A DNA stretch of 54,965 bases from an uncultured Clostridia bacterium (GCA_947628855.1 CANRBM010000003.1:1-54965), one strand, 5' to 3'. Counted from the first letter of the stretch, positions 28,460 to 54,965 are shown. The notes: generated by a model not told the origin, from the letters alone. Made by a program: numbers and translations.

Positions 28460-28488
28460 TTGACAGATATGGATTTAGGGATTATTAT
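28460..28488 (+). promoter_or_regulatory. Near-consensus sigma-70-like promoter upstream of the giant lipoprotein gene
   Basis: TTGACA (28460-28465), 17-nt spacer, TATTAT (28483-28488), within an AT-rich block. Predicts a ~245-nt leader. Confidence 0.55.
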
Positions 28489-28739
28489 GAACCTATATTA
28501 ATATTTGTAATGCACAAATATTCATAAAAATGCAGAATTATACATTATTTATGCATAACGTCAACATTGCAACACTATCATTAATATAACTGAAAGAGGA
28601 GCCCGACGAAGCTGTCGGCGAAAAATAGATATAGAAAAATAAATAGCCCCTACTGCCGCGGCGCGGGAGAAAAACCGTGGCGAGGCAGGGAAATAAGATT
28701 ACGTAACAACAAAAATTATTTAGACCAGGAGGAGAGCAT

Positions 28740-31700
28740 ATGTCTAATAAAAGGACTTTTACAATTGTTCTCGCGGCATTGATGGTCGTTGTGCTTTTGG
28801 TATGCGTGCTTGCAGCGTGCGACCCCAAGCATAAAGATCCCGTGCCGCCGGGACCCGAAGGAGGAACATACTATTTCGACGCGGGAGCGGAGGAATATAC
28901 CGTGTCCCTTGAAGCGGACAATAAGTTTACGCTCAACATTTTAGGCGAGACTCACAGCGGATGGTATTCGTTGTCGGGTAGCGCCCTTTTGCTTAATTTT
29001 GACGACGACTCGGAGCAATTGTCCGCGCAACTGACGAACAATTATAACACTCTCGAATTCACCTACAACGGACAGGCGTACACATTCTTGCGCAAGACCG
29101 AATTTACGGTGACATTCGATACGGGGGGGGGTACCCAGATCGATCCCGTCACTGTCTTGAACGGCAAGACCATCTCGAAACCGGATGCGCCCTCAAAGGA
29201 CGGCAACTTTGTTTTCGAGGGCTGGTATTCGGACAGCAAATTCGAATTTAAATACGATTTCGACGCTCCCGTCACGGGCGATATCACTCTTCACGCGAAC
29301 TACGTGTCCTCCATTAGGGAGCCTATCGAATTCACCGTAAAATTCGCTGGAGATGGCGGATTTGAACCTATTCAGACGATAAAAGGCGTCGCTTACGGCT
29401 TGCCCGAACCCAAGAAGGATGGGGACAAGTTCGTGGGCTGGTGGGTGAGCTCTTCAAACGAACAAGACAAGCTCTCCTATCAATATGAGGGGCAAAAACT
29501 CACCGAAAATACGACGTTCTTCCCTGTGTGGCAGTCTCAGCTTGTCGGCGGAATGGAAGTTTCCGTCAATGCGGAAGGCATATTCTGGACGGGCAAAAAC
29601 GACGTCACGATCAGCATAGTATCTCCCGCCGGCGTGACTTCCGAGACCATAACAGGGCGCGAAAACGAGTATCTATTCGATTCGAACAACTACAAACTGT
29701 CTCAAAACGGCGAGTATAAGTTTACCGTTAAGGCGGCGGGCTCCGACGACGCTACCGTGCGTTATTTCGTCAACGGAAGGTTGTCAAGGGTCTCATGTTT
29801 TGAGGTCGAAAACGGTTCCAACTCTTTAAAATTCAACCATGTCGCAAACGCGCAGTCCTACAACGTCAGCATTGTGACTAAGGACGGCGTAAAGCAGGAG
29901 ACTCTGGACGCGGCGACGGTGCAAAACAACACAATGGTGTTTGATTTTTCCGCATACGACATCCCTGCGGACGGCTATGTATTCACCGTAGAAGCGGTCG
30001 GCAAAGGGTATCTCAATTCAACGTCCGAATCGTTCAACTACAATCGTTTCCTCGACAAGGTAGCGCAGCCCGTCTTTGACGAAGCTACACAATCTTTCTC
30101 GTGGCAAGCAGTCGAACACGCAAATCGTTACGTCGTCAAATTGAACGGCGAGCAAGTTTTGGACGGACCGTCGGTCACTTTCGACCTTAAAGATAAGGAT
30201 CCGGGCACGTACTCAATTGAAGTACAGCCTTTCGGATTTGGCTACAACGCACCCGAAGCGACGACGAAAAATATTGACAAGCAAAAACTTGCCGCTCCTT
30301 CAAATCTCAAACCGAGCACGGACGGCAAATCCATAGTTTGGGACCACGTCAAAGACAGCGTAGGCTATATCGTCTACAAAGGCGATGTAAAGCTTGCGGA
30401 GCCTGCAACAGAGTCATTTGTATTCGACGGCTCGCTTTTGAGCGGCGGAGCAGTAGATATTTACGTTGTTGCAAAGAGCAGCGATCCTAAACTCAACTCG
30501 CCGAAATCCAACGCGATGAACGTCAGCAACCGCGTTGAAAATATTACATACAACAAGGGCGTCATCAGTTGGAGCTTTGTGCTTGGCATAAGCAAATATT
30601 TTGTCAAGATCAACGACGGGCAGGAGCTTGAAGTCAACGGCACTTCCACGAATGCGTTGCCCCTTGTCGCAAAGACGAACGTTATTTCGGTACGTCCCGA
30701 AAACGGCGAATCCAACACCGCGACGGTTGAGGCGTTTGAGATCTCATTCGATCTCGGCTATGAAGGCGCGTCGCACCCCTCGCAATTCAAGACGACGGGC
30801 GAAAGTTTGCACATAACAAATCCCGCGTCGGAGCGTTACGGTTACGACTTTGAATATTGGGTAGACGAAAACGGCACTCAGATAACGGACGGCACATTCA
30901 ACGGGATTTCGGACACGGTGTACAAAGCAAAGTGGGATCCGCATGAGTTTATGATCACGTTCGACCTCACCGATCAAGCCATCGACGAGGAGATTAAAGA
31001 CACAAAATACAACAATCAAAAGGTGACGTTTGACGACGGCAACTTTACTCTTCCCGCGCCTACTACCGCATCAAAAGACGGCAAGCACGCTTTTGAAGGT
31101 TGGTATATGAGTTTGGGAGGTAGTTCCGCTGCTCAAAAGATAACCGACTATACGGGCAAAGCGACCGCTCCTTTTGCGTACAATCCGACGGACGGAAAAG
31201 TCACGTTCTTTGCAAAATGGGTGGAGATATTCAAATTTGAATCGGTCGAAGGCGGCTGGCGCGTACAGAAAAACGGCAACTACATCGACTATTTGTCCAA
31301 CGTGAAGATCCCAGCCAAGCAGGACGATCAATGGGTCGTGGCGGTTTCCGATTTTTCAAACTGCACAAAGCTTGTCACTCTCGACATCCCGTCGAGCGTC
31401 ACGCAAATCAACTTTGGCGATCAAGGCGTATCCTTTGCGGGCGATACCGCGCTGACGGCAATCAACGTGTATCCTGCGGAAGGTTATAAAGGCACGGTGA
31501 AATATGCTTCGAAAGACGGCGTCTTGCTTGAAAACGACGCGCAGGGCAATGCGGTCAAGCTGATGTATTGTCCTCTCGGCAAGTTGAGCCGCCTCACGGA
31601 ATTCACCATTCCCACAGGCGTCAAGACTGTTGCGGCGGGCGCGTTTTACAGCGAGACATTTCAATACAATGCGTTCCATTTGCAGACCATCAACTTCCCT

Positions 31701-34700
31701 GCGACGGTAGAGAGGGTGGAGAAAAACGCGTTCTACAACATAAGGGGCATCACCACCATCAACTTTTTGCCTGTAAATGAGGGAGAGACCAAGGCGGAAA
31801 CTCTTATCATTGAGTTGGGCGCGTTCACGGGCGACGGCGACAACACGCACAGCACAACATACGACGTCGAGGTCATCAATTTGCCCGCGCGTTTTGACGC
31901 GACCAACTTTGATCTTTTCGATGAATTCCGTTGGCTCGAACAAATAAATGTCATAGAAGAGGGCGGCAAGTTTACAAGTATAGGAGGTGTGCTTTGCTTG
32001 AAGAGCGGCACCACGCTTGAACTTGCCAAATATCCTCTGTACGGCGCAAACGAATACTCCGTACCCACTGAGATAACTAAGATAGGCGCAAAGGCGTTCT
32101 ATCACAACACGCGCATCAAGAACGTGACCATCGGCGCGCACGTCACCAACATCGGCGAAAGTGCATTTGAAGGATGTATGGGGCTTACCACGCTGACATT
32201 CCTCGGCACGAAAGAATCGAGCGACCTGCACATTGCAAGGAAGGCATTCTACGGCTACTATAAAAACAATCCGTCCTCAGCGCTTTGGCCGAAGGTGACC
32301 GAATTGACTTTGCCCGCCAACCTTGTCGAGCTTGGCGAGATGGCGTTTGGCAACCATGGCAACTTAAAGGAAGTCAAAGTGCTTGTCGAAAGAGATAAGG
32401 TCGATTTCAAAGATGACGCGTTTGTAGATATCGAGGTCAACAAAACGGCATGGGTCACGGACTTATATCTCGGCGCGGGCGTGCCCTATTTCAACATTTC
32501 GGGGGTATTCGGCGGCGCTCTGAAAAGAGTTGAAGTTGATCCTCAAAACAAATTTTTCACCAACGCCGAAAACGACGGCACAAACAAAGGCGCGCTTTAC
32601 AACAAAGAGATGACAAAGCTTGTGTACTTCCCGAAGTCGTTTGAGGGAGTTTTCAACATACCTCTCCAGATAACAACAATTTCCAACTCACTGTTCACAG
32701 GTTGTAACCTAACCGGCGTCAAGATACACAACAAAGTCACAAGCATAGGAAACTTAGCATTTGACGATTGTGCAAAACTCATTTCCGTCGAATTCTGCGA
32801 CCAAAACTACAAAACGCTTAAAGCAGGCGAGAAGTTTGAAGCGCTTGTGATCGGCGTCAACGCATTTAAGGATTGCGTCAAATTGACGACAATATCTCTC
32901 CCCGAAGGTCTTACGAAACTTGATGAAGGCGTGTTCTCCGGTTGCACGACGCTCAGCGAAGTGCATTTGCCTTCGACGCTTGCAGAGATGGCGCTAAAAT
33001 CGGCGGATTCTGCAGAAGAGGGCGAAGTGGGCGACTTCACGATGTTTGAAAAATGCGACGCGTTGTCCGTGCTCACCGTTGCCGAGGGCAATGAAAAGTA
33101 CGGCGCGTATGACGACGTTCTGTACGAATTGCGCAAGGTGAACACCGCCGCCGCAAAGGAAGATCCTGTCTATGGATTTGTTGAGAATACGCTTTTGTTC
33201 TGCTCTCGTGGCAAGACGGGCACCGTCACTATACCCTCAACAGTGCGCAGAGTACAAACAAACGCATTCAGTGGCAGCCAGGTGTCGGAGATCATCTTCG
33301 AAGACCTTGAAAAGACCACCAATGTCGATGGTGAAGACCATGTTGATCTCACCATTATGGCGGGCGCGCTGTACAACACTCCGCAACTTGAAAAACTGCA
33401 CCTGCCCGAAGGCATGACATCGCTTGCCGATACAGTTGAGGATGATACAAAACATAAAAACATATTCTCAAAGATGAACATCTCCGGGTCGGCATGTTAC
33501 GAGGAGGCGTTTAAAGCGATCGACTTCCCCTCCACGCTCACATTCATCGGCGCAAGGCTGTTTGACGGCTATTTCAGGTGGTATGATCCTCTCACCGTCA
33601 CGTTTGCGGAGGCAAAAGAGGGACAGGAGGTAGCAGGACTCACCATAGAGGACGCGCCTGCCGAAAAGTCGAGTTCTTCTTCCACGACCACAACAGCCAC
33701 GAACAAGGGTCTGTTTGTGAACGGTTCTGTCACTCCGACGAGCGGCATCAACCTTGCACCCATCACATTCCCGTCCCACCTCATATACTTGGGCAAGGCG
33801 GCGTTGTACTGCACAAAGGTGAGCAGCGTCACATTCACCGAACCGGCGAAAAACGAGGATGGTTCATACAAATTTTCGCTTGAGATAGGCACCTCTGCAT
33901 TCTATGACGCACCCAACATCACGTCGCTTACTCTGCCCGGCAATTTGACGAAGATAGGCGACCATGCGTTCTACAAACCGGGGTTTGCAAGCATAACCAT
34001 CCCCGCGAATGTCACCGAGATAGGCGCAAGCGCGTTTGCAGGTTCGTCAACGGGTAATGCCTCTGCTCAAAGCATGCGTCTTACTCAATTGTTATTTGCG
34101 GAAGGCTCCAAACTGAAAACGATAGGCGACAGCGCGTTCGCGTCACAGAGTCTCTCTCAAGTGACCATACCCGCCAGCGTAACAGAGATAGGCAAACTCG
34201 CGTTCAATAAAAACAAGCTGTTGACGAGCGTGACTTTTGAAGATTTTGACAAGGTCAAGACTACCGACGATGAAGGTAAGGCTGTAAGCATCGATGAAAT
34301 CTTGCTTGCGATAGGCGACAATGCGTTTGCGTCGGACACTGCGCTTAGCACTATCACACTTCCTATACGTTTGAAGAGTTTGGGTGCAAACGCTTTCTTG
34401 GACAGCGGTCTGACTTCAATCGAATTCGCGGGAGTCAAAGACAGCGAGACGAAAGAAGAAACTGCATCACCCGCTTACGATACGGATCGTACCATCAGTC
34501 ACCTCGAATCGATAGGCGACATGGCGTTCAGCAACACCCCTCTCGCATCGATTGTATTCCCAAAGACCCTCAGTAGCAGCGCTCCCAACGAGTTGAAGCT
34601 CGGCGTAAACCTGTTTGTCGGTTGCACGCAATTGACAGAAGTAACGCTGTCCTCCACCGTGCTTGACATAAGCAGCGTGTTTGCGGGCAACGGCACGATA

Positions 34701-37700
34701 AAGAAGATCAACGTCAACGTCAACAACACCAAGTTTGTGGCGGATACAAACGGATTGCCCATCATATATGAAAAGAGCGGGCAGAGCGACGATATGTCTG
34801 TCGCGCTTGTGTATGCTGACCTCAAAGGCACGATCACTCTTTCGGGTGACAATATAGGCGCGGGCGCGCTTGCCAACATAACGGGCATACAACACGTGGT
34901 GATAGGAGCTTCCGTCAAAGTGATCGGCGACAGGGCGTTTGAAAACTGTGTCTCGCTTGAAACTGTAACAATTGCGCCGGGTAGCCAACTGCAAACGGTC
35001 GGTTCATACGCTTTCCAAAACTGCACAAGCTTGACTACGGTCGATTTCTCCAACGCGTCTAAGTTAACGACGTTCGGCGACGGCGTATCAAAAGGAACGA
35101 CAAGTACAAGCTCGCTTGCAAGCAATATCAAGCAAACCGTCGGCATTTTCAACGGCTGCTCCAACCTTGACACTGTCAAGCTCGGCAGCGGCGTGACAAA
35201 GCTGGGCGTAGCGATGTTTGCAGGATCGGGCGTAAAAACGGTAGACTTGTCGCTCTCGACCAATTTGGAAGAGTTTGAACAAGCCGCGTTCGGCAATACG
35301 CCAAGGCTCACCACAATAAAATTCCCCGAAGCGAAGGACAACAAGTTGGCGCACCTTGGACAGTACACCTTCTTCGGGTCGGGAGTGCAAGAGCTTGACT
35401 TCTCAAGCTGTCAATTGCTCAAAGCCACCGCGCCGTCAAAGTATTTGGCGACAAACCCCGACGGCACAGATCCCGACAGCAAGAAAGACATCAATGGTTT
35501 AAGCCAATATGCGGCGACGTTCGCGTATGCGACAAACCTGCAAAAAGTTACCTTCCCAACAACATTGTTGGCGCTTGGTCAGTATACTTTCGTAGGGTGC
35601 AGCGCGCTCACGACGGTGGATGGCATTGCAAACGTCAACAGACTTTGCAAAAATTGCTTCGAAGCAACGGGCGACGTCCAACTCACGTTTGGCGACGTTG
35701 ATATGAATTTCGGGCAATATGTGTTCTACAACGCAGGCGACGTCAAAGTTGTGTTTGGCGACCGTGACGTGACCATCGGGCAATATGCGTTCAAAGGAGC
35801 GGGCAACGTGCAGATCACACCTCCTAAAAATCACACTATGACATTTGAAAATACAGACACGTTTGCAGAATCCAAGATAAAGACGTGGACAATCCGCACG
35901 CAGGACGTTTATACAAAGACAGACAGTATGTTCAAAAAGTGCACGGAACTTGAACACGTCTACGTGGAAAAGGGCGCGACAGACAACTTCACAGCGATAG
36001 CCGACCATATGTTCGAGTGGTGTACATCGCTTGTCAGCGTTGAGTTTGACAAGCTTGAAAACCTTGAGTCGATAGGCGCACAAGCGTTCAACATGTACGA
36101 CAATGGGACGAATAAAAAAATTATCTACGAAAACGTTTTTGTCGGCGGGGACGGACAATCGCCCGTGCTTGACCTCAGCAAGACGAAGATAAAGACCATA
36201 GGCGCGCAAGCGTTCAGCGGTTGCAACAAGTTGAAGTCGGTCAAGTTGCCCGCCACGCTTGAAAAGTTAGGCACTGGTAGCGAAGGCTCTGGCAACTTCT
36301 ATAAGGGCGTATTTTACAGCTGCACTGAGCTTGAAAGCGTGGACTTCTCGCTCTGCTCGAACCTCACTGTGCTTGGCATGAACGCGTTCTACGGCTGTAC
36401 GAGCCTCGACAACGTCGACTTGACGGCGACTCAGTTCGACAAACTGTATAATAACACGTTTAGGGGTTGCACGTCGCTTGCAAACATCAAGTTGCCCGAT
36501 TCGCTGGCGCGCTTTGACGGAACGTATCAATTCCAGGGTTGCACAAACCTTCAAAGCATAGACTTGTCCAACACGGGCATATCCACATTGCCGTACGCTG
36601 CGTCATTCTCGTTGTCGACGCAGGCATATACGTTTGCGGATTGCACCAATTTGCAAAGCGTGACGCTCTCCAACGCCGTGACGGGCATCGGCACTAACGC
36701 ATTCCAAAACTGCGGCATGCTCGAATCCATCAACGTCGTTGACGCAAACGGCAGGGAGACCGATTCAGGCATATCCATCATAGGCAACAACGCCTTCCAA
36801 GGCTGTTCGTCGCTTGCGGAGTTTGACTTCAGCGCTGTCACAAAGATTGGCTCATCCGCATTTGCGGGCGCGGGCTTCACGACCCTCACTTTGCCCGACA
36901 AGTCGTTTGTGGCAAGCTCGATAAACGCAAGCGCGTTTGAAGGCTGCGAAAAGCTGACAAAGGTGATAATACCTTCCAAGTTCAGCGTGGCAACAAATGT
37001 TGCAAACTACATGTTCAGGAATTGCACCTCTCTCATCACAGTTGAGTTTGAAGTGACGGATGGCGCGGCAAATCGCACGTTGCCAAAGGGCATGTTTGCA
37101 GGGTGCACACAGCTTGGCTCAATCGACTTCACCAACGCGTACATCACATCCGTACCCGCAGAGTTCCTCAAAGGAGCAAGCGAGCTCAAGTCGATCACGT
37201 TGCCGGAAACCGTGACAACTATAAGCGCAAACGCGTTTGAAAACTGCGGCGGTCTGAGCGCGGCGAGCTTTGGCGAAGCGGGCTTGACAAAGGTCAAGAC
37301 GATAGGGGCGGCGGCGTTTAAGAATTGCGCCTTCACGGAAGTTACGTTTGAAGAACTCACGTCGCTTGCCACCGACTCCTTCCTTGGTAATGAATTGACT
37401 TCCGTCACTCTTAACGGCAACGCGGCAAACAACTTTGCGTTTAACGATACGTTCAAGTCGTTGACAAACAAGGCGGGTACGACCACCTACACCTACAACC
37501 CGACTTTGAGCGAAAACGGTACGCTCGACTTGTCAAAGGTCGAAAACCTCGTGTTGAGCGCGTACATGTTCCAAAACGTCGAGGGATTGAAGTCCGTCAT
37601 ATTGCCGAAGTTGCCCACATATTCAGGTGAGTTTTTCCCGGTGATACCTGCAAACACGTTTGCCAACAGCTCCGTCGAAACGGTTGACCTCAGCAACACG

Positions 37701-39614: not shown

Positions 39615-39623
39615 AGAGCAACG

Positions 39624-39658
39624 GTTCGGCGGCGGGTTTTACGCCGCCGAACGTGTTT
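39624..39658 (+). terminator. Strong hairpin after the giant gene (terminator or processing site)
   Basis: GTTCGGCGGCG (39624-39634) / CGCCGCCGAAC (39642-39652), 11 bp perfect, followed by the weak T-tract GTGTTT. Confidence 0.5.
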
Positions 39659-39769
39659 CATAGGGCAATGCCATGCGTAAAAATGTCAACATAAAATGCG
39701 AGGGTTTCCATTTGCATTTAACAGTAAAACTTACAGGGCAATGCCATGCGGCAGGGAGAAAAAAATCGC

Positions 39770-39798
39770 TTGCCAATATAGCGATATAATGCTAAAAT
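39770..39798 (+). promoter_or_regulatory. Candidate internal promoter for the MoxR/VWA module
   Basis: TTGCCA (39770-39775), 17-nt spacer, TAAAAT (39793-39798). Two exact 16-nt direct repeats AGGGCAATGCCATGCG lie upstream (39662-39677, 39735-39750). Confidence 0.45.
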
Positions 39799-39865
39799 AT
39801 ATAAATACACAACCTATATTCGTGTGCGCGTATAAATAAAGAAGATATAAGGAAAGGAGGCGGAT

Positions 39866-40954: not shown

Positions 40955-40987
40955 ATCTACAAAATTTGAACATTTGAAAGGTAAATT

Positions 40988-43003: not shown

Positions 43004-44943
43004 TGAAATTGCTTGTGCCCCTTGGACTTTTGGGCTTGATCGGACTTATCGCGCTTTTGCTCATCTACATCATAAAGCCGAATTTTCTCACGAAATACAC
43101 TTCGAGCAACTACATATGGCAGCTCGCGCTCAAGTATAAAAAGAAAAGATTCACCACTAACAAGGTCAGGGAGATCCTTCTCATAATTTGTCAAGTGCTC
43201 ATAGTCATCAGCCTCGCGCTCATTATGGCGTGGCCCGTCATAGACAACAGCGTGCACGGAGATCCCAACGATTCCGTCATCATTTTGGACTCCTCCGCGA
43301 GTATGCGCGTGGTGGACGAAGAGGGAAAGAGCCGCTTTTACAGGGCGGTGGATCTTGCCATAGATCAAGTCAATAAGACCGCGGCAAAAAAGGGACATAC
43401 CAGCGTAATATTTGCAGACGACAATCCGAGGTTTATCGCGCAGGGAGTCGCGCCCGAGTATGCGGCTAGGGTGGTAGACGATCTCATGAAATTGCAGGAC
43501 GACGAGGCGTGTACGTATACGTCCGCCGATATCGACGGAGCGATCGGGTTGACCGAGGATATTTTCCTACGCAATCCCGAGGCGCAGATATATCTGTATA
43601 CGGATTCGGACTATCTTTCCGTGCCCGAAGGCGTCAACGTGATTTCGGTCATAGACGAGAACGAGTGGAACATCGGCATTGTGGACGCAAAAGCGGAGCT
43701 TGTGGACGGTTTGTACGCCGTCACAGTACAGGTCGCGCTTTATGGCAGATCGGACAACTTTTCATTGAATATGCGAATTGAAAAGTCGGAAGGCGAAGGC
43801 GACAATATTTCCACCGATATGCTCTTTTTTGCCGAAGATCAAATAACGACCGTGACCTTCATAGAGGGCGGAGGCAAACAAGCGGACTTGCACTACTATC
43901 ACAATATCGAGGGATTGTCGAGCTTTTCGGAGTTTAAGTCGATAAGGCTGTACTTTGATGACCCCAACGATTCTTTCAGCGAGGACGACGAGTTTTTCAT
44001 CTACGGCGGCAGCAGGGAAAGGATAGACGTCGAGTACGTTTCGAGCGATCCGAACCCGTTCTACGAGACGCTGCTTAGCAAGTTGCCGGGCGACTATGCA
44101 GACCGTTGGGATATAAGGGTGCGCATGGTGTCGCAAAACGACTATATGAAGGGCAATTACGACGTGGAAGGGTATGATTTTTATATTTTTGAAAATCTTT
44201 CCAACCTAAAGACCGTGCCCACCGACGGCGTTGTCATAATAATGGATCCCCCAAATGGAATAATACCGGGGATATCGGTGTCTGTAGAAGGTTCGATCAA
44301 CGGCAACGGCAATGAATTTCATTTTACGTCCGACGCAGGGCATCCGATAATAAACAACATCAATCCCGACAACATTTTCGTCACAAGGTATTCGAAAGTG
44401 TCATACGACACTTCGATCTATACCACGCTGATGAAATGCGAGCAAAATCCCGTCGCACTGCTCTGTGACAACTATGATAGTAAACTTGTCGTATTGCCGT
44501 TTTCGTTGCACTACTCCAACATAGGCCGCAGGCCGGAGTTTGTGTATCTTATCTATGGCATATTCGACTATTTCTTCCCGTCAACGGTGCAAAAGTACGC
44601 ATATGAGGTCAACGAAAACGTAACGCTCAATTCTAAAGGCCCCGTGCTCACCTTCGACAAAACGGACTATAAAGAATTTCCGTTCACGTTGAAGTTCTCA
44701 AAGCCGGGCACCTACACGTTCAAACAGTCGTCCTATTTCAGCGACGAGAGGACAGACTTGAGCATTTACGTCAGATTGCCCAAGATGGAGAGCAACATCT
44801 TCATGACGTTGGACGTTCTCCAATTGCCGTACGTGGCAAGGGAGAGCGGCATCGATTATCAAGATCTGCTTCTCTATTTTGCGATCGCGCTTGTGGCGCT
44901 GCTCTTCGTAGAGTGGATACTTCATTCGTTTGAAAACAGGTGA
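43000..44943 (+). CDS. BatA-like membrane protein: N-terminal double-TM (BatA_N-like) region, VWA domain, C-terminal TM anchor
   Basis: 647 aa. 'LLVPLGLLGLIGLIALLLIYIIKP' plus a second TM. MIDAS 'VIILDSSASM' (DxSxS). C-terminal TM 'LLLYFAIALVALLFVEWIL'. Confidence 0.75.
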   Translation: MMKLLVPLGLLGLIGLIALLLIYIIKPNFLTKYTSSNYIWQLALKYKKKRFTTNKVREILLIICQVLIVISLALIMAWPVIDNSVHGDPNDSVIILDSSASMRVVDEEGKSRFYRAVDLAIDQVNKTAAKKGHTSVIFADDNPRFIAQGVAPEYAARVVDDLMKLQDDEACTYTSADIDGAIGLTEDIFLRNPEAQIYLYTDSDYLSVPEGVNVISVIDENEWNIGIVDAKAELVDGLYAVTVQVALYGRSDNFSLNMRIEKSEGEGDNISTDMLFFAEDQITTVTFIEGGGKQADLHYYHNIEGLSSFSEFKSIRLYFDDPNDSFSEDDEFFIYGGSRERIDVEYVSSDPNPFYETLLSKLPGDYADRWDIRVRMVSQNDYMKGNYDVEGYDFYIFENLSNLKTVPTDGVVIIMDPPNGIIPGISVSVEGSINGNGNEFHFTSDAGHPIINNINPDNIFVTRYSKVSYDTSIYTTLMKCEQNPVALLCDNYDSKLVVLPFSLHYSNIGRRPEFVYLIYGIFDYFFPSTVQKYAYEVNENVTLNSKGPVLTFDKTDYKEFPFTLKFSKPGTYTFKQSSYFSDERTDLSIYVRLPKMESNIFMTLDVLQLPYVARESGIDYQDLLLYFAIALVALLFVEWILHSFENR

Positions 44944-44953
44944 GGAGGTAGGT

Positions 44954-47719: not shown

Positions 47720-50645
47720 GATCGCCGTCGCCTTGATATTGGCGCTTTCCCTCGTCATGGCATTTACGGCCTGCAACGAAAAATTCGCGCTCCAAACGCC
47801 CGAAGGACTTTATCTTGACGAGAACTTTACTCTCACCTGGAGAGAGGTCGCCGACGCGCGCGGCTACGAAGTGGAGATATCATCAAATGGAGAGGCGGCG
47901 ACATTGCGCAAAGTCACGCGTCCCGTCATCTCGCTGTCCGACCTCGAGGCGGGCGAATATACTGTGCGTGTAAGAGCGTACGGCGGCGCAAATAAGGACA
48001 AATTTTCGGCGTATACCCTCCCGTTCTCATTCTCGCGCGATTTTGAATCGGGACTGCTGTATGGGCTTGTGAACGGCTCGGAATACACCGTGACAGGCAT
48101 AGGCACAGCAAACGGAGATGTCGTGATAGAGGACTACTACCACGGACGTCCCGTCACCGCAATCGCGGACAACGCCTTCAGAGGCAGGGCGCTTGTAAAG
48201 ACCGTCAAGGTCGGCGCGAACGTCAAGTCTATAGGTGCGAACGCCTTTTACAATTGTGTGAACATGACTTCCGTGAGCCTTCCCGAGGGCTTGAGCGAGA
48301 TCGGCGAATCAGCTTTTCAAGGCTGTACATCCCTCGAGAGCATAGACGTCCCCGCGGGAGTGAAAGTCTTAAACTCGCTCGCTTTCGGCTATTGCAGAGG
48401 GCTAAAGACCGTTACTCTTCACGAGGGGCTGAGAGAGATAGGTGATTCGGCGTTTTACGAGTGCAACTCTGTGACGTCGTTCAAACTCCCAGACAGTCTC
48501 GAGTATATATATGGCAGCGCTTTTTCGGTCACGAGCGCGCTTGAGCATATCGAATTCGGCAAGGGGCTGAGATATATAGGCGCCGAGGCGTTCGTGGGCA
48601 GCGGGGTCACAGATCTTGATTTCAAAGATACGGACGCCGCGCTGTCTATAGCAAGCGCCGCGTTCGAGGGCTGCTCGTTCAAGGAGATAGCTCTTCCCGA
48701 GGGCGCTACCGCAATAGGGACATACGCTTTCTACGGTTGCAAAGAGCTCGCAAAAGTCGAACTGCCAAGCACGATAACGTCCATAGGCGGATTTGCGTTT
48801 GAAGATACCGCGATAGTGGCGGCGCAATCCGAGGGCGCGTCGTTTATCTACGTTGACGATTGGCTTGTCGGCGGGACCGAACTTCTCAAAACGAATATCA
48901 AATATCTGAAGGGAGAAAACGATCCCGTTTCAGGCGACACGAACAACAACAAGATACCGGATTCGTGGGAGCAGGATCCCGACTTCCGCATGGAGGACAA
49001 GAGCGAGGAGCTGCGCCAAAGCTATTTCGAGATCAAGAGCGGCACAGTCGGCATCGCAGATTACGCGTTTGTGCCCGCAAGCGCGTTTGTGAGCGGAGCG
49101 GAGGCTTACTCAAACCTCTACGACATAATCCTGCCGAACAGCGTCAAATATATAGGACAAAGTGCGTTCACCTACGCGACAAAGCTGTATAAATTCGAGT
49201 GCACCGATTCTTCGTCGCTGTTGTCGATCGGGGCGAGCGCCTTCGAGCAATGCTATTCGCTCTCCAACATATCCCTCAAGGAAGGGCTGGAAGTCATCGA
49301 AAGCGGCGCGTTTGCGGGGTGCAGTAATCTCAGAAATAACTCCGATAATCCCGAAAAGATAACCCCGCGCTCGGTAAAGAGGATAGGCGCGTTCGCGTTT
49401 TACGATACGGCGATTTGGAAAGCTGCCGCGGGAACGGGCGGACTTGTCGTTGCAGGCAACTGGATCGTCGGATTCGATTCGGAGGGCAGATGGCAATTCG
49501 ACGGCTCTCTTGAAAGCTATGAGCAAGGAAATATAGAGATAGTCGGCGTGTCGGATTACGCGCTGTATCAGTGTCAAAACCTGCAATCCATAAACATCGA
49601 AAACGTCTCGAAAATAGGGCGGAGCGCGTTTTCGGGCTGTACGTCCTTGATAAGCGTCCAGCTCAACAATAATTTGAGCGAGATCCCCGCGTTCGCGTTT
49701 TACAATTGTACTTCGCTTTTGATGTCGAGTTTCCCGCGCGATCTTAGGACTATCGGGCGTTACGCGTTCTTTAAGACAGCCGTTCAAAACGTCGATCTGG
49801 GCGGTACAAGGCTGACGTCGATAGGCGATCACGCCTTCTACGGTTGCGAGAATATGACAACGCTCACGCTGTCGAGCAGGATGACCGAGATTGAGCCTTA
49901 CACCTTCTACGGCTGCAAGTTGCTTGAGAACGTCTCCATCCCGAACGGCGTGAATTCGATAGGCGAGAGGGCGTTCGGATACTGCTCTTCTCTCGGCGAG
50001 GTGGAATTCGGGACGGGACTCAAAGAGATAGGCGAGTACGCGTTCAGAAATTGTGACGCGCTTGCAGCGATAGAGTTAGCACACGTCGAGAATATAGCGA
50101 GCCACGCGTTTTATGGCTGTACTTCCGTTGCGGATCTCTCGCTCGGCGACAGCGTAAAGACGATAGGCGCCGCCGCGTTCGAGGGCATGAGCATAACGCG
50201 ACTTGTTTTGCCTTCGTCCGTCGAGAGCGTGGGAGACGCCGCGTTCAGAGGTTGTGTGACTCTCAAAACGGCATATATAGCGGGCAAACCGTCGTATGTC
50301 GGCGCAAACGCGTTTGGCGATTGCAACGGACTCACGATATATTCGGCGCCTTCGAGAGAGGACGCTACAAGTTGGAACATCATCTGGAACTCGACGTTCA
50401 GACCCACATTCTATTCATGCACATTCGACGGAGAGACCCTCCTTGCAGTGACGACGGATATTGACAACGGCACTGCGTTTATGGGCGTAAGCGATCCCTA
50501 CCGCGAGGGCTATGGATTTGCGGGCTGGTCAAGGAGCGAAGGCGGCTCGGCTGAATTTGCCACCGCCGAGCTGGGCGGGCAGGACGGCGGCATAACGCTG
50601 TACGCAGTCTACAATGAAACGCCTTCTCAAGGCGTGGAAGAATAA
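47706..50645 (+). CDS. BspA-type LRR lipoprotein with N-terminal Fn3-like domain and C-terminal InlB-type B-repeat
   Basis: 979 aa from ATG 47706 (GGAGGG RBS), overlapping the preceding gene by 14 nt. Lipobox 'LSLVMAFTAC'. LRR_5 units such as 'VKVGANVKSIGANAFYNCVNMTSVSLPEGLSEIGESAFQGCTSLESIDVP'. C-terminal 'GYGFAGWSRSEGGSAEF...ITLYAVY'. Confidence 0.85.
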   Translation: MKRFKIAVALILALSLVMAFTACNEKFALQTPEGLYLDENFTLTWREVADARGYEVEISSNGEAATLRKVTRPVISLSDLEAGEYTVRVRAYGGANKDKFSAYTLPFSFSRDFESGLLYGLVNGSEYTVTGIGTANGDVVIEDYYHGRPVTAIADNAFRGRALVKTVKVGANVKSIGANAFYNCVNMTSVSLPEGLSEIGESAFQGCTSLESIDVPAGVKVLNSLAFGYCRGLKTVTLHEGLREIGDSAFYECNSVTSFKLPDSLEYIYGSAFSVTSALEHIEFGKGLRYIGAEAFVGSGVTDLDFKDTDAALSIASAAFEGCSFKEIALPEGATAIGTYAFYGCKELAKVELPSTITSIGGFAFEDTAIVAAQSEGASFIYVDDWLVGGTELLKTNIKYLKGENDPVSGDTNNNKIPDSWEQDPDFRMEDKSEELRQSYFEIKSGTVGIADYAFVPASAFVSGAEAYSNLYDIILPNSVKYIGQSAFTYATKLYKFECTDSSSLLSIGASAFEQCYSLSNISLKEGLEVIESGAFAGCSNLRNNSDNPEKITPRSVKRIGAFAFYDTAIWKAAAGTGGLVVAGNWIVGFDSEGRWQFDGSLESYEQGNIEIVGVSDYALYQCQNLQSINIENVSKIGRSAFSGCTSLISVQLNNNLSEIPAFAFYNCTSLLMSSFPRDLRTIGRYAFFKTAVQNVDLGGTRLTSIGDHAFYGCENMTTLTLSSRMTEIEPYTFYGCKLLENVSIPNGVNSIGERAFGYCSSLGEVEFGTGLKEIGEYAFRNCDALAAIELAHVENIASHAFYGCTSVADLSLGDSVKTIGAAAFEGMSITRLVLPSSVESVGDAAFRGCVTLKTAYIAGKPSYVGANAFGDCNGLTIYSAPSREDATSWNIIWNSTFRPTFYSCTFDGETLLAVTTDIDNGTAFMGVSDPYREGYGFAGWSRSEGGSAEFATAELGGQDGGITLYAVYNETPSQGVEE

Positions 50646-50715
50646 AATAAGCAACAAATTTGCTCCTGCGGGGAGCAATTTATCGGGAGACTACCCGATA
50701 TCAACGAGGTGTATC

Positions 50716-53700
50716 ATGAAAAAGCACGGCTTTAAGGTCATATTGCTCGTAGTGCTGGCGATCGCGCTCATCGCGTCGCTCGTCGCATGCAACAAGACTT
50801 CCTATACGCTGTCCTTCGAGACCAACGGAGGAGAAGCCATCGAAAGCGTCAAGGTGGAGGAGGGCAAGGCTTACACTCTGCCAACTCCGACCGAGAGAGC
50901 GAATTTCGTATTCGAGGGCTGGTATCTCAATCAAAATTGCGAGGGCGATCCCGTCAAAGAAGTCATCATGAACGGCGATACGACGGTATATGCCAAATGG
51001 TCGGCGGCGTATGCGCTCACCCTGAAAATTTCCGCTACCGAGACAAAAGTCGTATATCTCAAGAGCGGACAGGCGCTGGGACCCGTCCTCGACGGCGTTC
51101 AGACTGCCGCCCCGTCGGGATATATCTTCGGCGCATGGTTTATGGACGGCAAGGAGATAGGTGCGGATATGGTCATGCCGTCCTCTCCCGTCACGCTCGA
51201 AGCGAGATATAAAGTGCATTTCACGTCCGCTGTCTCTATCGAGCAGCCCGACGGCACATACAAAGCCTCCGACGCCGTCGAGGGCTACGGCTATGTGGGC
51301 GAGTTTCCCGCGATCGCCGCTGAGGGCTACAAAGTGGACAAGTCCGCCTCCGGCACGGTGTATAAAGAGCTGTCCTCCGATCCCGCCGAGAACAACTTCA
51401 AAGTGTTCTTGTCGTCGCACGGATTTGTGCTCACCGTCAAGGCAAATTGTCCCGAAGAAGGCTACGACCTCAAGGATTATCAAAACGACAAACTCGATTA
51501 CGGGCAGAAAGTGGAAGATCTTCCGCTCTACGGCATCGCGGGCAGCTATATCATGATAGGCTGGAGTCGCGATAAGGACGCAGAAAAGCCCGAGTGGGTA
51601 TCCCCCATCTTTTATAACGACCTTTACAACAAGGACGGCGCGAAAGCCCCCGAAAGTTATGTCGTATCAGAGGACGACGTAACGCTTTACGGCGTGTGGC
51701 TGAAGGGCGCTACGGACATCTTCGGCGGAAACGATATCGTCTATTTCATGGATGAGGGCGAGGAGCCGTTTGTGTACGTGTGGCGCGGCGGCAAGTTCTT
51801 CAAGGGCGAATATTATCCTGCAAACGGGGATTTCGTCGTCAGAAACGCCGCAGATGAGGCGTCCATAGACGGCAGACTCAACAAAGACGGCACTTTCAGC
51901 TATACCGACACAAACAGGGCGACCGTCGGCAACTACTTCCTCTACAAGGTCGGGTCTATTGACGAGAATGTCACTATCGTCGTGGACCAATACAACGGCA
52001 TCACCTATACCGATCAGAATCTTGACTCCAACCGCGTTTCAAGCGGCACCTATGTGCTGGACGAAAACGGATATTATATTGCAACGTTCGGCGAAGGCGG
52101 GCCGCTCTCGGGACAGAAAGTGACCATTTTCGTGGGACTGACCAACAATAACACGAGAGTATTTGCTCTCCGCAACGAGGACGATCTTGCTCTCGGCGAG
52201 GTGTATCGTCACATAGGGACATCTCTCTACTATCCCATCTTCACATTCGACGGATTCTTCACCGCCACGTACAGTACGGGCGGCAGCAACTCCGGCTCCA
52301 CAGGCACCTATTATTATTCGCGCGTAAGCGAGGACGAGATCAGAGTTGCGTCCGACATCAGCGGTTTTTCAAGGAACAACTATCTCGTGCTGAAACTCGA
52401 CAAAGTTGCGGGCCCGAATGGAGAGCAATCCGTTTACTCCTTCTATTATGAGGAACTCGATCATACCTACACGTCTGAGAACGGCAGCGATGAACTCACT
52501 CTCGACGGCGAATATACCGCGCAATATCAAGGCAGAGAATACGTATTTATGACCGCGGGCACGTCAAACGCGCTCGGCGGCACTCTCGTTCAGCTTTATG
52601 AAAACTCGAGTTTCGCAGGACTTACGCTCAGATACATGTTCAGCGTTTCCACAAAGACTATAAATGGCGAGGAAGGAAGCGAGCCGACATACGAATATAA
52701 ATTCAAGGCGCTCAACTCCACTCAGTACGCCGAGCTCACCAGGCTTGACAGCCAGAGCGGAAACATTGCCCGCGATTATATGCTCGTGATAGAGGACGAA
52801 CAAAACGCCTCGCTTTACAGGACGGCATACATGTTTAATATGTTGTTTGGCGTGGAGCTCATAGCAAAAGGCACATATGAGGTGGCAAACGACGACAACA
52901 ACACCTATAAATTCACCGTCGATGCAAGCAGCATAGGCGAGAACGGCTCGGCAGACATAGGCATAGGGCAACCTCTTGAGAATGTAGAATACTTTGAATT
53001 CGGCATGGCAAGTTCGTCAAGTCAGCAGCTGTTCTACTATGTAGCATACAAACTCAACGATCAAGCCGAGGTCAGATACGACAAAGTGTACTTTGAAGAG
53101 GGCGGCGACGACGTTCTCACGATCATAGGCACGGAAGAGGCCGGATTTGCCACCTACAAGAAAGACGGCACCGTGTACAGCGGCAACTATCAGACGCAGG
53201 ATTTCATCTTTATCCTCACCTACGCGGCAGCGTCCGAAACGCACACTGTCTATCTGCAACTCAGCGACAACGAAAGCGGCGATGACACCTACAGCGAGCT
53301 GTCTCTGCCGCTCGGAAGATTCTATGAATATACGCACGGCGTTATAAACAGGGAAAACTATCTCACCTTTGACGGAAAGGGCGGAGCTACGCTCTATGAG
53401 AAGGATACCCCGATCGAGGGCACGTTTAAAGAGAGCGACGATCTCACGCTGCTCGAGGACCTCGAAATGCACTATATGACGTTTACGTCAAAGGACAATA
53501 AGCTGACATTCAACTATGTCTTTGCCTCCGTAAGCGGGTACACATACTTTGTGCGCCATGAGGACAAGGCAAGCGGCACATTCACACAGATAAGCGCCAA
53601 GTCGGGCGAGACTTTGGAAACAGTCGGCACACTTCAGCTCGACGGCTACTATATCGCGAGGTATACGCCCGACAACTCGGACAAAACTGAATATATCGAC

Positions 53701-54965
53701 GTCCCTTACACATTCGATCCCGAAACCAATGCGGTCAGAATAAGTTACACCTATAATGGCACGAGATATTATGCCTATTTCGATCTGAAAGCAGACAACA
53801 AATTCACAGAGCGAGGTTCGGAATATACCGACCTCTGCTTGCTGTACGACAACGCGAGGCTCGTATTCGATGTATCTTTCAAACTTGACGGTTACGGCAA
53901 ATTGACCGTCCTTGGAAGTGACGGCGAAGAAGTGGGCTCGGGCACATATGAGTTTGACGAAGATCGCGCCCTCACGTTCACCTACACTCTCGACTCCGAT
54001 CCGTCCAAAACTCTGACCCAAAAGGGACAACTTGGCACGGTGTCCATAAGCGGTATTTCCGTCCCCGCGCTGCTCGTCGATCGCAGTACGATAGAGGGCA
54101 CCTACGTCGTCACGGATGACCTCACCGTCCTCAATCTTGACCGCTTTGGCAACGCCATATTCGTCAATAAGATGGGCTTAGCATATCGCGCTATGTATCA
54201 GATCGTTGACGACAAACTTGCGGGAGGCAAGGTGCTCATCTTCTTCACAGGCGTCACCACTTCCAGGAGAGCTACAAGCAAGAGCGCGGGCCTGTTTGTC
54301 ATTGACAAAGCGGCGGGAACGGTCACGGCAGTGGAATACGACAAGACCTACAGCTATTACGACGTGGATCTTTCCGCAATGCAGTTCTCAAAGACGGGCT
54401 ATTTGTACATCGACGCGGAGCTCGCTTTCTACACCGTTGCGGAGGACGGCAACGTCACTATCTATCGCAACAGCGACAGCGCCTCCAAAAACGAATACGG
54501 ATTTGAAAAGGATACGACGTTTGGCAAGCTCACCACGGAAGGGGACAAGAAGTACGGAGACAAGACCTATCATTACAACACGCAAGAGGGATTTGACATC
54601 CACTTCGTGCGCGAACAGGCAACTGCCGAACAATATCCCTTTGAATATATGAAGGGCGAGGATAAAGTCTCTGCGCCTATAGTGTCGCTGTACTTCACTC
54701 CTTCCTACTCATCTGACAGCGCAAACTTCACGGTGAGCGGTACAATAAGTTTCAAGGACGATCCCAAGACCTACGCTTGCCGCGTGATAAGGCGCGTTGA
54801 CCCCGACGATCCCGCTAAGGTCGAGACCTATATCTCGGTGGACGACGGATCGTACGGATACTACAGGCTCGACATCGACGTCACATACAACGGCGGCACA
54901 AACAACACCTTCAAGATCACGAGAATGCGCCATATCGTTGAGATGAACTCCTACGAGTTTGAATA
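50716..54965 (+). CDS. Large lipoprotein (at least 1416 aa, 3' end beyond the window): N-terminal InlB-type B-repeats followed by more than 1100 aa of unrecognised beta-rich sequence. NOT in the supplied ORF track.
   Basis: I translated frame 1 by hand from ATG 50716 (GAGG RBS 7 nt upstream) to the window end and found no stop. The track omits it, presumably because it has no stop codon in the window. It begins 'MKKHGFKVILLVVLAIALIASLVACNKTSYTLSFETNGGEAIESVKVEEGKAYTLPTPTERANFVFEGWY...TTVYAKW'. Later sequence contains recurring 'GTY.FDE....LTFTY'-like strands. Confidence 0.85.
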   Translation, partial: MKKHGFKVILLVVLAIALIASLVACNKTSYTLSFETNGGEAIESVKVEEGKAYTLPTPTERANFVFEGWYLNQNCEGDPVKEVIMNGDTTVYAKWSAAYALTLKISATETKVVYLKSGQALGPVLDGVQTAAPSGYIFGAWFMDGKEIGADMVMPSSPVTLEARYKVHFTSAVSIEQPDGTYKASDAVEGYGYVGEFPAIAAEGYKVDKSASGTVYKELSSDPAENNFKVFLSSHGFVLTVKANCPEEGYDLKDYQNDKLDYGQKVEDLPLYGIAGSYIMIGWSRDKDAEKPEWVSPIFYNDLYNKDGAKAPESYVVSEDDVTLYGVWLKGATDIFGGNDIVYFMDEGEEPFVYVWRGGKFFKGEYYPANGDFVVRNAADEASIDGRLNKDGTFSYTDTNRATVGNYFLYKVGSIDENVTIVVDQYNGITYTDQNLDSNRVSSGTYVLDENGYYIATFGEGGPLSGQKVTIFVGLTNNNTRVFALRNEDDLALGEVYRHIGTSLYYPIFTFDGFFTATYSTGGSNSGSTGTYYYSRVSEDEIRVASDISGFSRNNYLVLKLDKVAGPNGEQSVYSFYYEELDHTYTSENGSDELTLDGEYTAQYQGREYVFMTAGTSNALGGTLVQLYENSSFAGLTLRYMFSVSTKTINGEEGSEPTYEYKFKALNSTQYAELTRLDSQSGNIARDYMLVIEDEQNASLYRTAYMFNMLFGVELIAKGTYEVANDDNNTYKFTVDASSIGENGSADIGIGQPLENVEYFEFGMASSSSQQLFYYVAYKLNDQAEVRYDKVYFEEGGDDVLTIIGTEEAGFATYKKDGTVYSGNYQTQDFIFILTYAAASETHTVYLQLSDNESGDDTYSELSLPLGRFYEYTHGVINRENYLTFDGKGGATLYEKDTPIEGTFKESDDLTLLEDLEMHYMTFTSKDNKLTFNYVFASVSGYTYFVRHEDKASGTFTQISAKSGETLETVGTLQLDGYYIARYTPDNSDKTEYIDVPYTFDPETNAVRISYTYNGTRYYAYFDLKADNKFTERGSEYTDLCLLYDNARLVFDVSFKLDGYGKLTVLGSDGEEVGSGTYEFDEDRALTFTYTLDSDPSKTLTQKGQLGTVSISGISVPALLVDRSTIEGTYVVTDDLTVLNLDRFGNAIFVNKMGLAYRAMYQIVDDKLAGGKVLIFFTGVTTSRRATSKSAGLFVIDKAAGTVTAVEYDKTYSYYDVDLSAMQFSKTGYLYIDAELAFYTVAEDGNVTIYRNSDSASKNEYGFEKDTTFGKLTTEGDKKYGDKTYHYNTQEGFDIHFVREQATAEQYPFEYMKGEDKVSAPIVSLYFTPSYSSDSANFTVSGTISFKDDPKTYACRVIRRVDPDDPAKVETYISVDDGSYGYYRLDIDVTYNGGTNNTFKITRMRHIVEMNSYEFE

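Follow-up and report, generated by a model that had tools for sequence, protein, structure and literature searches.

Introduction

Cassettes that combine a MoxR ATPase of the MRP (MoxR Proper) type, a DUF58 protein and proteins with von Willebrand factor A (VWA) domains, known as Bat cassettes, are widespread. Other pairs of MoxR and VWA proteins, such as CbbQ-CbbO and RavA-ViaA, remodel one dedicated client. To our knowledge, no client or mechanism has been agreed upon for the Bat cassettes since 1999. It was in that year that the Bat operon was first described (cited in PMC5700661). In this study, we analyzed a 54,965-nt stretch of DNA from an uncultured Clostridia bacterium (GCA_947628855.1, CANRBM010000003.1:1-54965; the whole stretch is hereafter called the window), in which a Bat-like cassette lies among genes for giant leucine-rich repeat (LRR) and B-repeat lipoproteins. 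Coordinates are those of the whole window, and the locus of interest occupies 28,460 to 54,965 on the + strand.

The Bat clusters of Bacteroides, Leptospira and Borrelia (BB0170-BB0176) and the locus in the window have a common gene order, namely MoxR, DUF58, a BatA-type VWA protein and a second VWA membrane protein. The locus differs from the Bat clusters in having neither the TPR proteins BatC and BatE nor BatD, and because these three are absent it is not a Bat operon in the full sense of the definition. The BatA homologue BB0173 of Borrelia has three transmembrane (TM) helices and a VWA domain facing the periplasm, as determined by experiment (PMC5700661). Archaeal arCOG01314 loci were predicted to form a secretion or membrane-remodelling system (Makarova, Galperin & Koonin 2015, PMC5898192). 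In Bifidobacterium, the PFNA cluster consists of pkb2-fn3-aaa-atp(MoxR)-duf58-tgm, and its authors suggested that MoxR may take part in FN3 folding (PMC8430577). The region described here represents a single cell-envelope module, built in three layers, that is conserved among uncultured gut Clostridia.

Results

Gene content of the locus

The preliminary description of this DNA had reported eight co-directional genes, and open reading frame (ORF) calls found all of them at the same coordinates on the + strand, from 28740 to the window end (Table 1). They are referred to as g1 (giant LRR_5 lipoprotein), g2 or T (membrane/B-repeat protein), g3 (MoxR AAA+ ATPase), g4 (DUF58 protein), g5 (BatA-like VWA protein), g6 (double-VWA membrane protein), g7 (LRR_5 lipoprotein) and g8 (B-repeat lipoprotein). 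The tight junctions described earlier were each reproduced: gaps of 33 nt between g2 and g3, 15 nt between g3 and g4 and 10 nt between g5 and g6, an ATGA overlap of g4 and g5 at 43000-43003, and a 14-nt overlap of g6 and g7. The remaining gaps were 251 nt (g1/g2) and 70 nt (g7/g8).

Profile hidden Markov models also upheld the earlier domain calls, namely LRR_5, Flg_new/B-repeat, AAA_3 MoxR, DUF58, VWA with BatA_N (the latter just under its cut-off in the window), and double VWA. All four proteins outside the core (g1, g2, g7 and g8) contained B-repeats, matched in Pfam by Flg_new or Flg_new_2. The absence of BatC, BatD and BatE from the locus had been noted before, and Pfam detected no TPR, SH3 or BatD domain, and hence no BatC/BatE-type protein, among the eight window proteins. 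An NCBIfam search of the same eight proteins gave nothing specific beyond the Pfam calls.

Conservation of the gene block in uncultured Clostridia

Hundreds of g6 relatives were found at full length, all from uncultured Clostridia. A profile of 20 of these relatives retrieved 492 from assemblies represented by one genome per species. We examined the best 80 of the 492 with 10-kb flanks (74 assemblies, 37-66% identity to g6) and searched the ORFs of each locus, using as queries the window proteins and window-derived profiles for LRR_5 and B-repeats. The double-VWA gene was the search anchor, and the denominators given below are the loci whose contig reaches far enough. The sampled genomes were metagenome-assembled genomes (MAGs) from rabbit, ruminant, deer, chicken and human gut, and some carriers were labelled Christensenellaceae, Christensenella sp. 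UBA4636 or Candidatus Scatosoma.

The order of genes was fixed: giant LRR_5 gene, T, MoxR, DUF58, BatA-like gene, double-VWA gene, a lipoprotein of ~950 aa with LRR_5 and B-repeat, and a B-repeat lipoprotein of ~1700 aa. The giant LRR_5 gene stood upstream of T in 49/49 assessable loci, and T itself was present in 50/50. A script located the BatA-like gene in 69/72 loci, and the other three were visible in the locus maps. Directly 3' of the double-VWA gene there was an LRR gene in 72/75 loci by script and in 75/75 on map inspection, and 68 of 69 loci carried a g8-like gene. MoxR and DUF58 lay between T and the BatA-like gene in 52/56 loci. In the four exceptions T was followed immediately by the BatA-like gene; one of these loci, L080, has MoxR-DUF58 after g8, and in the other three the contig stops at or shortly past g8.

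Junctions within the block were short, with medians of 42 nt for T to MoxR, 17 nt for MoxR to DUF58, -4 nt for DUF58 to the BatA-like gene, 12 nt for the BatA-like to the double-VWA gene, -4 nt for the double-VWA gene to the LRR gene, and 55 nt for the LRR gene to g8. The junction from the giant LRR gene to T was looser (174 nt). Overlaps of the ATGA type recurred among the loci. Reverse look-ups starting from T homologues, with independent gene calls and Pfam tags, led to the same locus in 5/5 cases, T being placed between an LRR_5/Flg_new gene of 2665-3393 aa and the cassette. Two further g6 homologues showed the same arrangement. Inspection of the conserved block in related loci revealed no TPR, SH3 or BatD domain of the BatC/D/E type. 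Thus, a recurrent synteny of MoxR-DUF58-VWA cassettes lacking BatC/D/E with LRR_5/B-repeat lipoproteins, which the preliminary description had put forward for comparison across relatives, was found in the 80 loci with counts from 72/75 to 49/49, and independent assortment was not seen in these relatives.

The genes outside the block varied. The gene 3' of g8 fell into 29 unrelated clusters among 55 loci, including glutamate dehydrogenase, a tryptophanase-like lyase, PepSY, collagen-repeat and flavoprotein genes. The gene 5' of the giant LRR gene was upp in the window and elsewhere an HTH regulator, an ABC transporter or FeoB/CDP-alcohol transferase. Since the flanking genes differ between loci, the synteny of the block does not reflect general genome collinearity. 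A conserved ninth gene was considered and rejected, because the gene past g8 is mostly an unrelated housekeeping gene and a subtilase occurs there in one sub-clade only. This cell-envelope subtilase (Peptidase_S8 with PA) was 3' of the g8-like gene in 17/55 loci, including L087, L024 and L039; in L087 (21710-22943, within a gene of 2480 aa) fn3_5, Big_2 and LRR_5 repeats are fused to it. Its role may be that of a processing protease, or it may be one more LRR client.

Some loci departed from the common composition. In L084/L085 (GCA_026338935.1, 11411-20347), MoxR is followed by the BatA-like gene at a distance of ~295 nt with no DUF58, and the locus ends after the ~950-aa LRR gene without a g8-like gene. 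A Big_3 protein replaces g8 in L086, and L083 has an additional LRR_5 gene. Near-identical or typical copies of the locus were also present in MAGs labelled Prevotella sp. (L032), Anaeroplasma bactoclasticum (L038) and Parasutterella excrementihominis (L079). Errors of binning or contamination most likely account for these labels, rather than occurrences outside Clostridia.

Divergence of the proteins and paralogous loci

Median identity to the window proteins was 80% for MoxR and 65% for DUF58, followed by the double-VWA protein (40%), the BatA-like protein (37%), T (36%), g7 (35%) and g8 (29%). The ATPase motifs and those of the metal ion-dependent adhesion site (MIDAS) were invariant despite the fast divergence of the exposed parts. 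Six genomes carried two complete paralogous loci, LRR genes included. Between the paralogues of one genome, MoxR and DUF58 were 69-99% identical, whereas the BatA-like, double-VWA, T, LRR and g8 proteins were only 29-51% identical. Conserved MoxR and DUF58 proteins set against diverged exposed parts indicate a generic engine that works with specific, co-diverging surface sets.

In the locus pairs L078/L080 (same MAG, CAKQKI01) and L004/L046, MoxR was 99% identical and the membrane and surface proteins were 29-45% identical; DUF58 was also 99% identical in L004/L046. The near-identical engine genes suggest gene conversion or recent copying between the loci.

Cytoplasmic proteins g3 and g4

The g3 protein matched AAA_3 (1.5e-61, 206 bits) and AAA_lid_2 (2.7e-16) in Pfam, and its Walker A (GVPGVGKT) and Walker B (DEINR) motifs were invariant in 55/55 homologues. 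With AAA_3 and lid, intact Walker motifs and DUF58/VWA neighbours, g3 belongs to the MRP group; a secondary match to bpMoxR scored 37 bits against the 206 bits of AAA_3. The VWA-like protein g4 matched DUF58 (3e-29), and its DxSxS motif (DMSAS; D88/S90/S92) was invariant in 66/66 sequences. Neither MoxR nor DUF58 showed a convincing TM segment, with one marginal hydropathy peak in a minority of homologues, and g4, having no TM segment, is thus predicted to be cytoplasmic.

VWA membrane proteins g5 and g6

In g5, Pfam detected VWA_2 (2e-6) and, just under the gathering score of 25.9, BatA_N (PF07584; 25.0 bits, E 2.5e-5), a threshold that several orthologues pass. The predicted order is TM1, a K/R-rich cytoplasmic loop, TM2, an outside region of ~545 aa and TM3. 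The outside region holds a VWA domain with the MIDAS motif DSSAS at residue 97, invariant in 73/73 sequences, and a further ~400 aa that match no family. Across homologues of g5 and g6, the N-terminus is short, the TM1-TM2 loop contains 5-8 K/R and no D/E, and a cytoplasmic tail follows TM3. We rejected g5 as a truncated paralogue of g6, as no g5/g6 similarity was present past the TM/MIDAS start.

Two VWA stretches (6e-26) were detected in g6 together with a weak GATase1_like match (25.1 bits, below the cut-off of 27); GATase1_like (PF07090) is also precomputed on many g6 homologues. The outside region comprises 820 aa, and the K/R-rich cytoplasmic tail RKFKFKWxHEIIRD is invariant. The MIDAS motifs of VWA1 (D-x-S-x-T/S) and VWA2 (DDSGS) were each invariant in 81/81 sequences, as were the distal Thr and Asp of VWA2 (T506, D535) in the alignment of g6 homologues. 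The AlphaFold2 model (pLDDT 83) consists of a TM hairpin, VWA1, an Ig-like sandwich, a flavodoxin-like alpha/beta domain and VWA2, followed by a GATase1-like region, a beta-sandwich, a TM segment and a cytoplasmic helix. The best Foldseek matches were adhesion-type extracellular VWA domains (the mussel PTMP1 double VWA, TRAP, MIC2, integrin I domains and the anthrax receptor) and BatB 3ibs. The topology predicted for g5 and g6 agrees with the experiment on BB0173, so that an outside orientation of the VWA domains is supported both by prediction and by experiment on a homologue. The three MIDAS/VWA domains of g5 and g6 and all B-repeats are predicted to lie outside the membrane.

The membrane protein family T

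In Pfam, T matched Flg_new_2 (1.1e-5). From hydropathy and the positive-inside rule, T is predicted to have an N-terminus inside, a TM1-TM2 hairpin, a 58-aa cytoplasmic loop, TM3 and an outside part. No part of the protein is better conserved than the cytoplasmic loop (RVDxLGLEERxLTMxELEGDxSYIAxxQREDA), in which D85, R92, T95, M96 and Q110 are invariant. In the outside part, an acidic low-complexity linker connects a divergent B-repeat with the C-terminal motif NQIxDGxTYYGDxY, which is conserved and rich in Tyr and Asp. The N-terminal module represents an unnamed family with 155 matches; among the 120 matches listed, lengths were 185-401 aa and nearly all 325-401 aa. An exhaustive search of metagenomes returned 1828 T clusters at 50% identity, 496 of them at E<=1e-30. 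A kinship of T with DUF4175 (PF13779) was not adopted, as 6/54 T proteins matched it (best E 1.2e-4) and the window T did not; the only experimental DUF4175 paper found, on AdvA of A. baumannii, is unrelated to T.

Giant lipoproteins g1, g7 and g8

The g1 protein contained 23 stretches of LRR_5 (6.6e-267) and Flg_new (4.9e-20). Its lipobox LAAC (Cys27) is followed by B-repeats at residues 122-186 and 198-261 and then by ~23-25 BspA-type LRR_5 units up to residue ~3560. Orthologues seen at full length had 2665-2959 aa, and two longer ones (2977 and 3393 aa) run off the contig or locus end. In g7, Pfam found LRR_5 (2.7e-144, 7 stretches), Flg_new and fn3, arranged as a lipobox (FTAC), an fn3-like domain, the LRR_5 array and a C-terminal B-repeat. 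Homologues of g7 begin at the MKK signal peptide and not at the upstream ATG that is present in the window at 47664.

The LRR regions also gave weak matches to two NCBIfam models: Gli349, the gliding 'leg' of Mycoplasma mobile (84-90 bits, cut-off 1750; g1 3236-3308 and g7 786-850), and the streptococcal HupY/LrrG adhesin model (166-174 bits, cut-off 1250). Membership of g1 and g7 in either family was rejected because the scores are far under the model cut-offs. The matches probably reflect a shared repeat character and not orthology.

The g8 protein has a lipobox (LVAC), N-terminal B-repeats (Flg_new 4.9e-14) and a long body that matches no family; its homologues have 1640-1790 aa. The body was all-beta in AlphaFold2 (pLDDT 76), and a fold search with it gave only matches with a TM-score of ~0.1 (multi-propeller and Tc-toxin shells), which were uninformative. 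BLAST self-comparison detected no internal repeats in g8; a recurring L-x-L-D-G-x-G-x-A-x-Y motif was visible only in the family consensus.

Regions upstream of g1 and g2

In the AT-rich region 5' of g1, which contains a promoter-like site (Table 1), AAAAATGCAxAATTATA occurs twice (28420 and 28526, within 28420-28556), and the inverted arms ATGCATAATTA and TATTTATGCAT surround the best promoter-like site. These repeats and arms suggest regulated expression of the giant LRR gene. No Rfam family matched at E<=1 when 27900-40000 was scanned for riboswitches or leaders 5' of g1 or g2, the ~250-nt g1 leader included.

The gap between g1 and g2 contains a strong, GC-rich stem-loop and a second promoter-like site. 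Between these two elements, the perfect 16-nt direct repeat AGGGCAATGCCATGCG is present at 39662-39677 and 39735-39750, 73 nt apart, and this pair could be an operator pair for a regulator. Judged by its consensus match, the promoter-like site is the probable start of a g2-g8 transcription unit. Given the stem-loop and the promoter-like site, g1 is probably a transcription unit of its own and g2-g7(-g8) a second one. The earlier description of the region as one locus stands for the eight genes, and a single eight-gene operon is improbable.

Table 1. Coordinates of genes and putative regulatory elements of the locus in the window
Feature	Coordinates	Strand	Length	Remarks
g1, giant LRR_5 lipoprotein	28740..39614	+	3624 aa	
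g2 (T), membrane/B-repeat protein	39866..40954	+	362 aa	
g3, MoxR AAA+ ATPase	40988..42088	+	366 aa	
g4, DUF58 protein	42104..43003	+	299 aa	
g5, BatA-like VWA protein	43000..44943	+	647 aa	
g6, double-VWA membrane protein	44954..47719	+	921 aa	upstream TTG at 44930
g7, LRR_5 lipoprotein	47706..50645	+	979 aa	upstream ATG at 47664
g8, B-repeat lipoprotein	50716..54965	+	at least 1416 aa	open at window end
Promoter-like site, TTGACA-17-TATTAT (11/12)	28460..28488	+		consensus match only; in AT-rich 700-nt region 5' of g1
Stem-loop	39624..39652	+	11 bp	9 G-C; 10 nt past g1 stop; terminator- or attenuator-like, weak T tail
Promoter-like site, TTGCCA-17-TAAAAT with TG	39770..39798	+		consensus match only; precedes g2

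Remainder of the window

The rest of the window is ordinary chromosome, with sugar catabolism genes, a restriction-modification island, aspartokinase, cdaA and holA. The sugar-acid/inositol-like catabolic cluster at 532-9250 encodes a KDPG/KHG aldolase, a PfkB kinase, two GFO/IDH/MocA oxidoreductases, a xylose-isomerase-like TIM barrel, an MFS_2 transporter and a carboxylesterase; it represents ordinary metabolism with no relation to the MoxR/VWA locus. A low-GC island at 13044-16422 (GC 0.44, compared with ~0.53 elsewhere) contains an Eco47II-type restriction endonuclease (13044-13865, - strand) and a C-5 cytosine methyltransferase (13862-14887, - strand), adjoined by a WYL/WCX-domain regulator (15442-16422, - strand). 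The island probably represents a type II restriction-modification system gained by horizontal transfer.

Discussion

A probable cell-surface machine with candidate clients

The Bat-like cassette and the giant LRR lipoproteins very likely form one cell-surface machine, and their functional coupling is well supported. The innermost of its three layers would be a cytoplasmic engine made of MoxR (g3) and the VWA-like adaptor DUF58 (g4). The second layer would comprise the membrane proteins T, g5 and g6, which are predicted to expose one B-repeat and three MIDAS VWA domains outside. The third would consist of two to three lipid-anchored surface proteins of very large size, namely the LRR_5 proteins g1 and g7 and the all-beta g8, all with B-repeats. 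Whether scaffold, export, sensing or force is involved, we regard it as likely that the cassette has the LRR lipoproteins as its partners or clients.

As for the mechanism, we tentatively propose, with a confidence a little short of evenly balanced and by analogy with other MoxR/VWA pairs, that the MIDAS domains hold the LRR adhesins as a scaffold which MoxR and DUF58 reset. The outside MIDAS/VWA domains would be metal-dependent scaffolds or docking sites on which the LRR/B-repeat lipoproteins, perhaps together with T's acidic tail, are bound and organised into a surface adhesin array. MoxR-DUF58 would assemble or reset this adhesin complex from inside, and its points of contact might be two cytoplasmic parts, the acidic, conserved loop of T and the invariant tail of g6. 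If CbbQ-CbbO and RavA-ViaA are a guide, DUF58 may use its MIDAS to hold an acidic residue in the T loop, with the g6 tail as a second handle. The preliminary description had already suggested an ATPase/VWA machine dedicated to the LRR lipoproteins; the fixed synteny supports the pairing, and the part on folding, anchoring or clustering is drawn from gene neighbourhood only.

Several points weigh against a scaffold of this kind. The protein-protein contacts are putative, as is any co-transcription of g1 with g2-g8, and a stem-loop and a promoter-like site separate g1 from the other genes. How a cytoplasmic ATPase acts on VWA domains outside the membrane is a puzzle common to all Bat-type systems. 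The sampled clade may be fairly shallow, since these 80 loci belong to the nearest g6 relatives and have MoxR proteins that are 71-84% identical. In addition, the variant loci L084/L085 and L086 indicate that DUF58 and g8 are not strictly obligatory.

Other explanations

The foremost alternative, a dedicated export or surface-assembly system, is unlikely. T, g5 and g6, powered by MoxR-DUF58, would help to translocate, fold or release lipoproteins of 1000-3600 aa after Sec/Lgt processing, with no static scaffold. The archaeal arCOG01314 loci are described with the same kinds of ingredients and were called a novel secretion system (PMC5898192), a putative GATase1_like/flavodoxin-like domain is present in g6, the size of the clients is unusual, and the double-VWA to LRR junction is translationally coupled. 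However, T, g5 and g6 have just 3 TM segments each and no channel-forming or multi-pass part is present, all three client lipoproteins have ordinary Sec/lipobox signals, and the archaeal system is itself a prediction. We consider it improbable that the LRR/B-repeat lipoproteins are ligand sensors whose signals are relayed through the VWA proteins to MoxR-DUF58, as in the bpMoxR ternary and Esr systems. LRRs are classic recognition modules and g3 has its secondary bpMoxR match of 37 bits, but g3 is far better described by AAA_3 (206 bits), and the conserved block has no kinase, phosphatase, FHA protein, transcription factor, effector or beta-propeller sensor. Moreover, g5 and g6 are predicted to present their VWA domains on the outside, in contrast to the cytoplasmic vWA of the ternary systems.

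A generic Bat cassette for envelope homeostasis or stress (aerotolerance, envelope integrity), with the LRR genes as co-located or co-regulated passengers, appears quite improbable to us. The locus does share the core order MoxR-DUF58-BatA-BatB with the Bacteroides, Leptospira and Borrelia clusters, and cassette mutants in Rhizobium are pleiotropic for envelope phenotypes (as cited in PMC5700661). Passengers are nevertheless hard to reconcile with the near-universal adjacency and the overlap of the g6/g7 stop and start codons, with the duplication of whole sets including LRR genes as a block within genomes, and with the rearranged locus L080, which still has all parts linked; T, g5 and g6 also diverge as fast as the lipoproteins, which is unexpected for a housekeeping envelope role. 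Least credible, and in our opinion very improbable, is a force-generating machine for motility or adhesin retraction, in which ATP hydrolysis by MoxR would be transmitted through T, g5 and g6 to giant LRR 'legs', loosely as in Gli349/Gli521 of Mycoplasma mobile. Giant surface proteins do stand beside an ATPase, the LRR regions match Gli349 at 84-90 bits, and the archaeal analogue was tied by its authors to the gliding protein GldG (PMC5898192). Against this, the Gli349 matches cover only ~70 residues and are far under the cut-off of 1750 bits, MoxR ATPases are not known motors, and no cytoskeletal or rotary component is present.

Significance of the module

In this lineage the cassette is tied to identifiable candidate clients, two LRR_5 lipoproteins and one B-repeat lipoprotein. 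T is a system-specific membrane adaptor, and together with the candidate clients it makes the client question testable as binary interactions. The system is common, with 492 g6 relatives in species-level genomes and ~1800 T clusters (50% identity) in metagenomes. Exposed parts that evolve fast and are duplicated within genomes are expected of adhesins that face the host, phages or neighbouring cells. A bolder version of the scaffold proposal, which we hold to be decidedly unlikely, is a hitherto unrecognised class of ATP-driven surface machine of monoderm gut bacteria in which MoxR-DUF58, acting through T and the BatA-like and double-VWA proteins, loads, repositions or releases the giant LRR adhesins. 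If true, it would amount to active, energy-dependent control of adhesion or surface movement and would give the Bat/MRP-type MoxR-VWA cassettes a concrete client.

Comparison with known systems

A full-text search of a literature library found no paper that pairs MoxR with BspA; nor did any combine leucine-rich repeats with MoxR and DUF58, or LRR proteins with Christensenellales. The preliminary description had called the pairing of the ATPase/VWA machine with LRR lipoproteins unfamiliar, and this search likewise yielded no paper describing it; partial precedents are the archaeal loci (PMC5898192), the PFNA cluster (PMC8430577) and the Bat-like proteins of Borrelia.

The likeness to the Bat clusters extends to the individual proteins. 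BatA and g5 have in common an N-terminal TM hairpin of the form TM1-K/R loop-TM2, and BB0173 shares with g5 and g6 a topology of 3 TM segments with VWA/MIDAS outside the cytoplasmic membrane, which is experimental for BB0173 and predicted here. The fold of the BatB crystal structure 3ibs is matched by the g6 VWA. In contrast to the Bat VWA proteins, g5 and g6 are much longer (647 and 921 aa) and have additional Ig-like, flavodoxin/GATase-like and beta-sandwich domains. In further contrast to the Bat clusters, the T family precedes the cassette, and giant LRR_5 and B-repeat lipoproteins flank essentially every locus.

By description, the archaeal arCOG01314 loci and the locus studied here have in common a MoxR/GvpN-type ATPase, an extracytoplasmic vWA and large surface proteins (S-layer, Ig-like in the archaea). 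A membrane-anchored flavodoxin/GATase-like domain outside may be a further common part, GATase1_like being matched below its cut-off in the window g6. The authors of that work reasoned alike, placing an ATPase/vWA module in the service of surface proteins within one predicted operon (PMC5898192). The two systems differ in that the other is archaeal and has DUF4350 and S-layer/Ig proteins in place of the BatA-type VWA, T, LRR_5 and B-repeat lipoproteins; no DUF58 was reported for it, and the system is itself only a prediction. The PFNA cluster resembles our locus in having an MRP-type MoxR and DUF58 beside a large secreted adhesion-type protein (FN3 in PFNA) in a gut commensal, but its genes include a Ser/Thr kinase and a transglutaminase membrane protein where our locus has BatA/BatB-type VWA proteins, and it encodes neither LRR_5 or B-repeat lipoproteins nor T.

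The bpMoxR ternary conflict systems and the actinobacterial Esr pathway likewise combine a conserved MoxR and vWA pair with sequence-divergent, filamentous surface proteins. They differ by their beta-propeller sensors, kinases, FHA proteins or effectors and their cytoplasmic vWA, and none of these outputs occurs in the block described here; in the window and the related loci, Pfam detected none of the propeller, kinase, FHA or effector domains within the conserved block. Like BspA-like proteins (Tannerella BspA, Treponema LrrA, streptococcal HupY/LrrG), g1 and g7 have long LRR_5 arrays with export signals. Unlike them, g1 and g7 are far larger (g1, 3624 aa), lipid-anchored, equipped with B-repeats and genetically fixed to a MoxR/VWA cassette. 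We know of no report of BspA-family proteins fixed to such a cassette. The core of the locus is thus a member of the MoxR(MRP)-DUF58-BatA/BatB kind, and what is new beside this Bat-like core is the T membrane family, the giant g8 lipoprotein family and BspA-type LRR lipoproteins, joined in a module of 7-8 genes.

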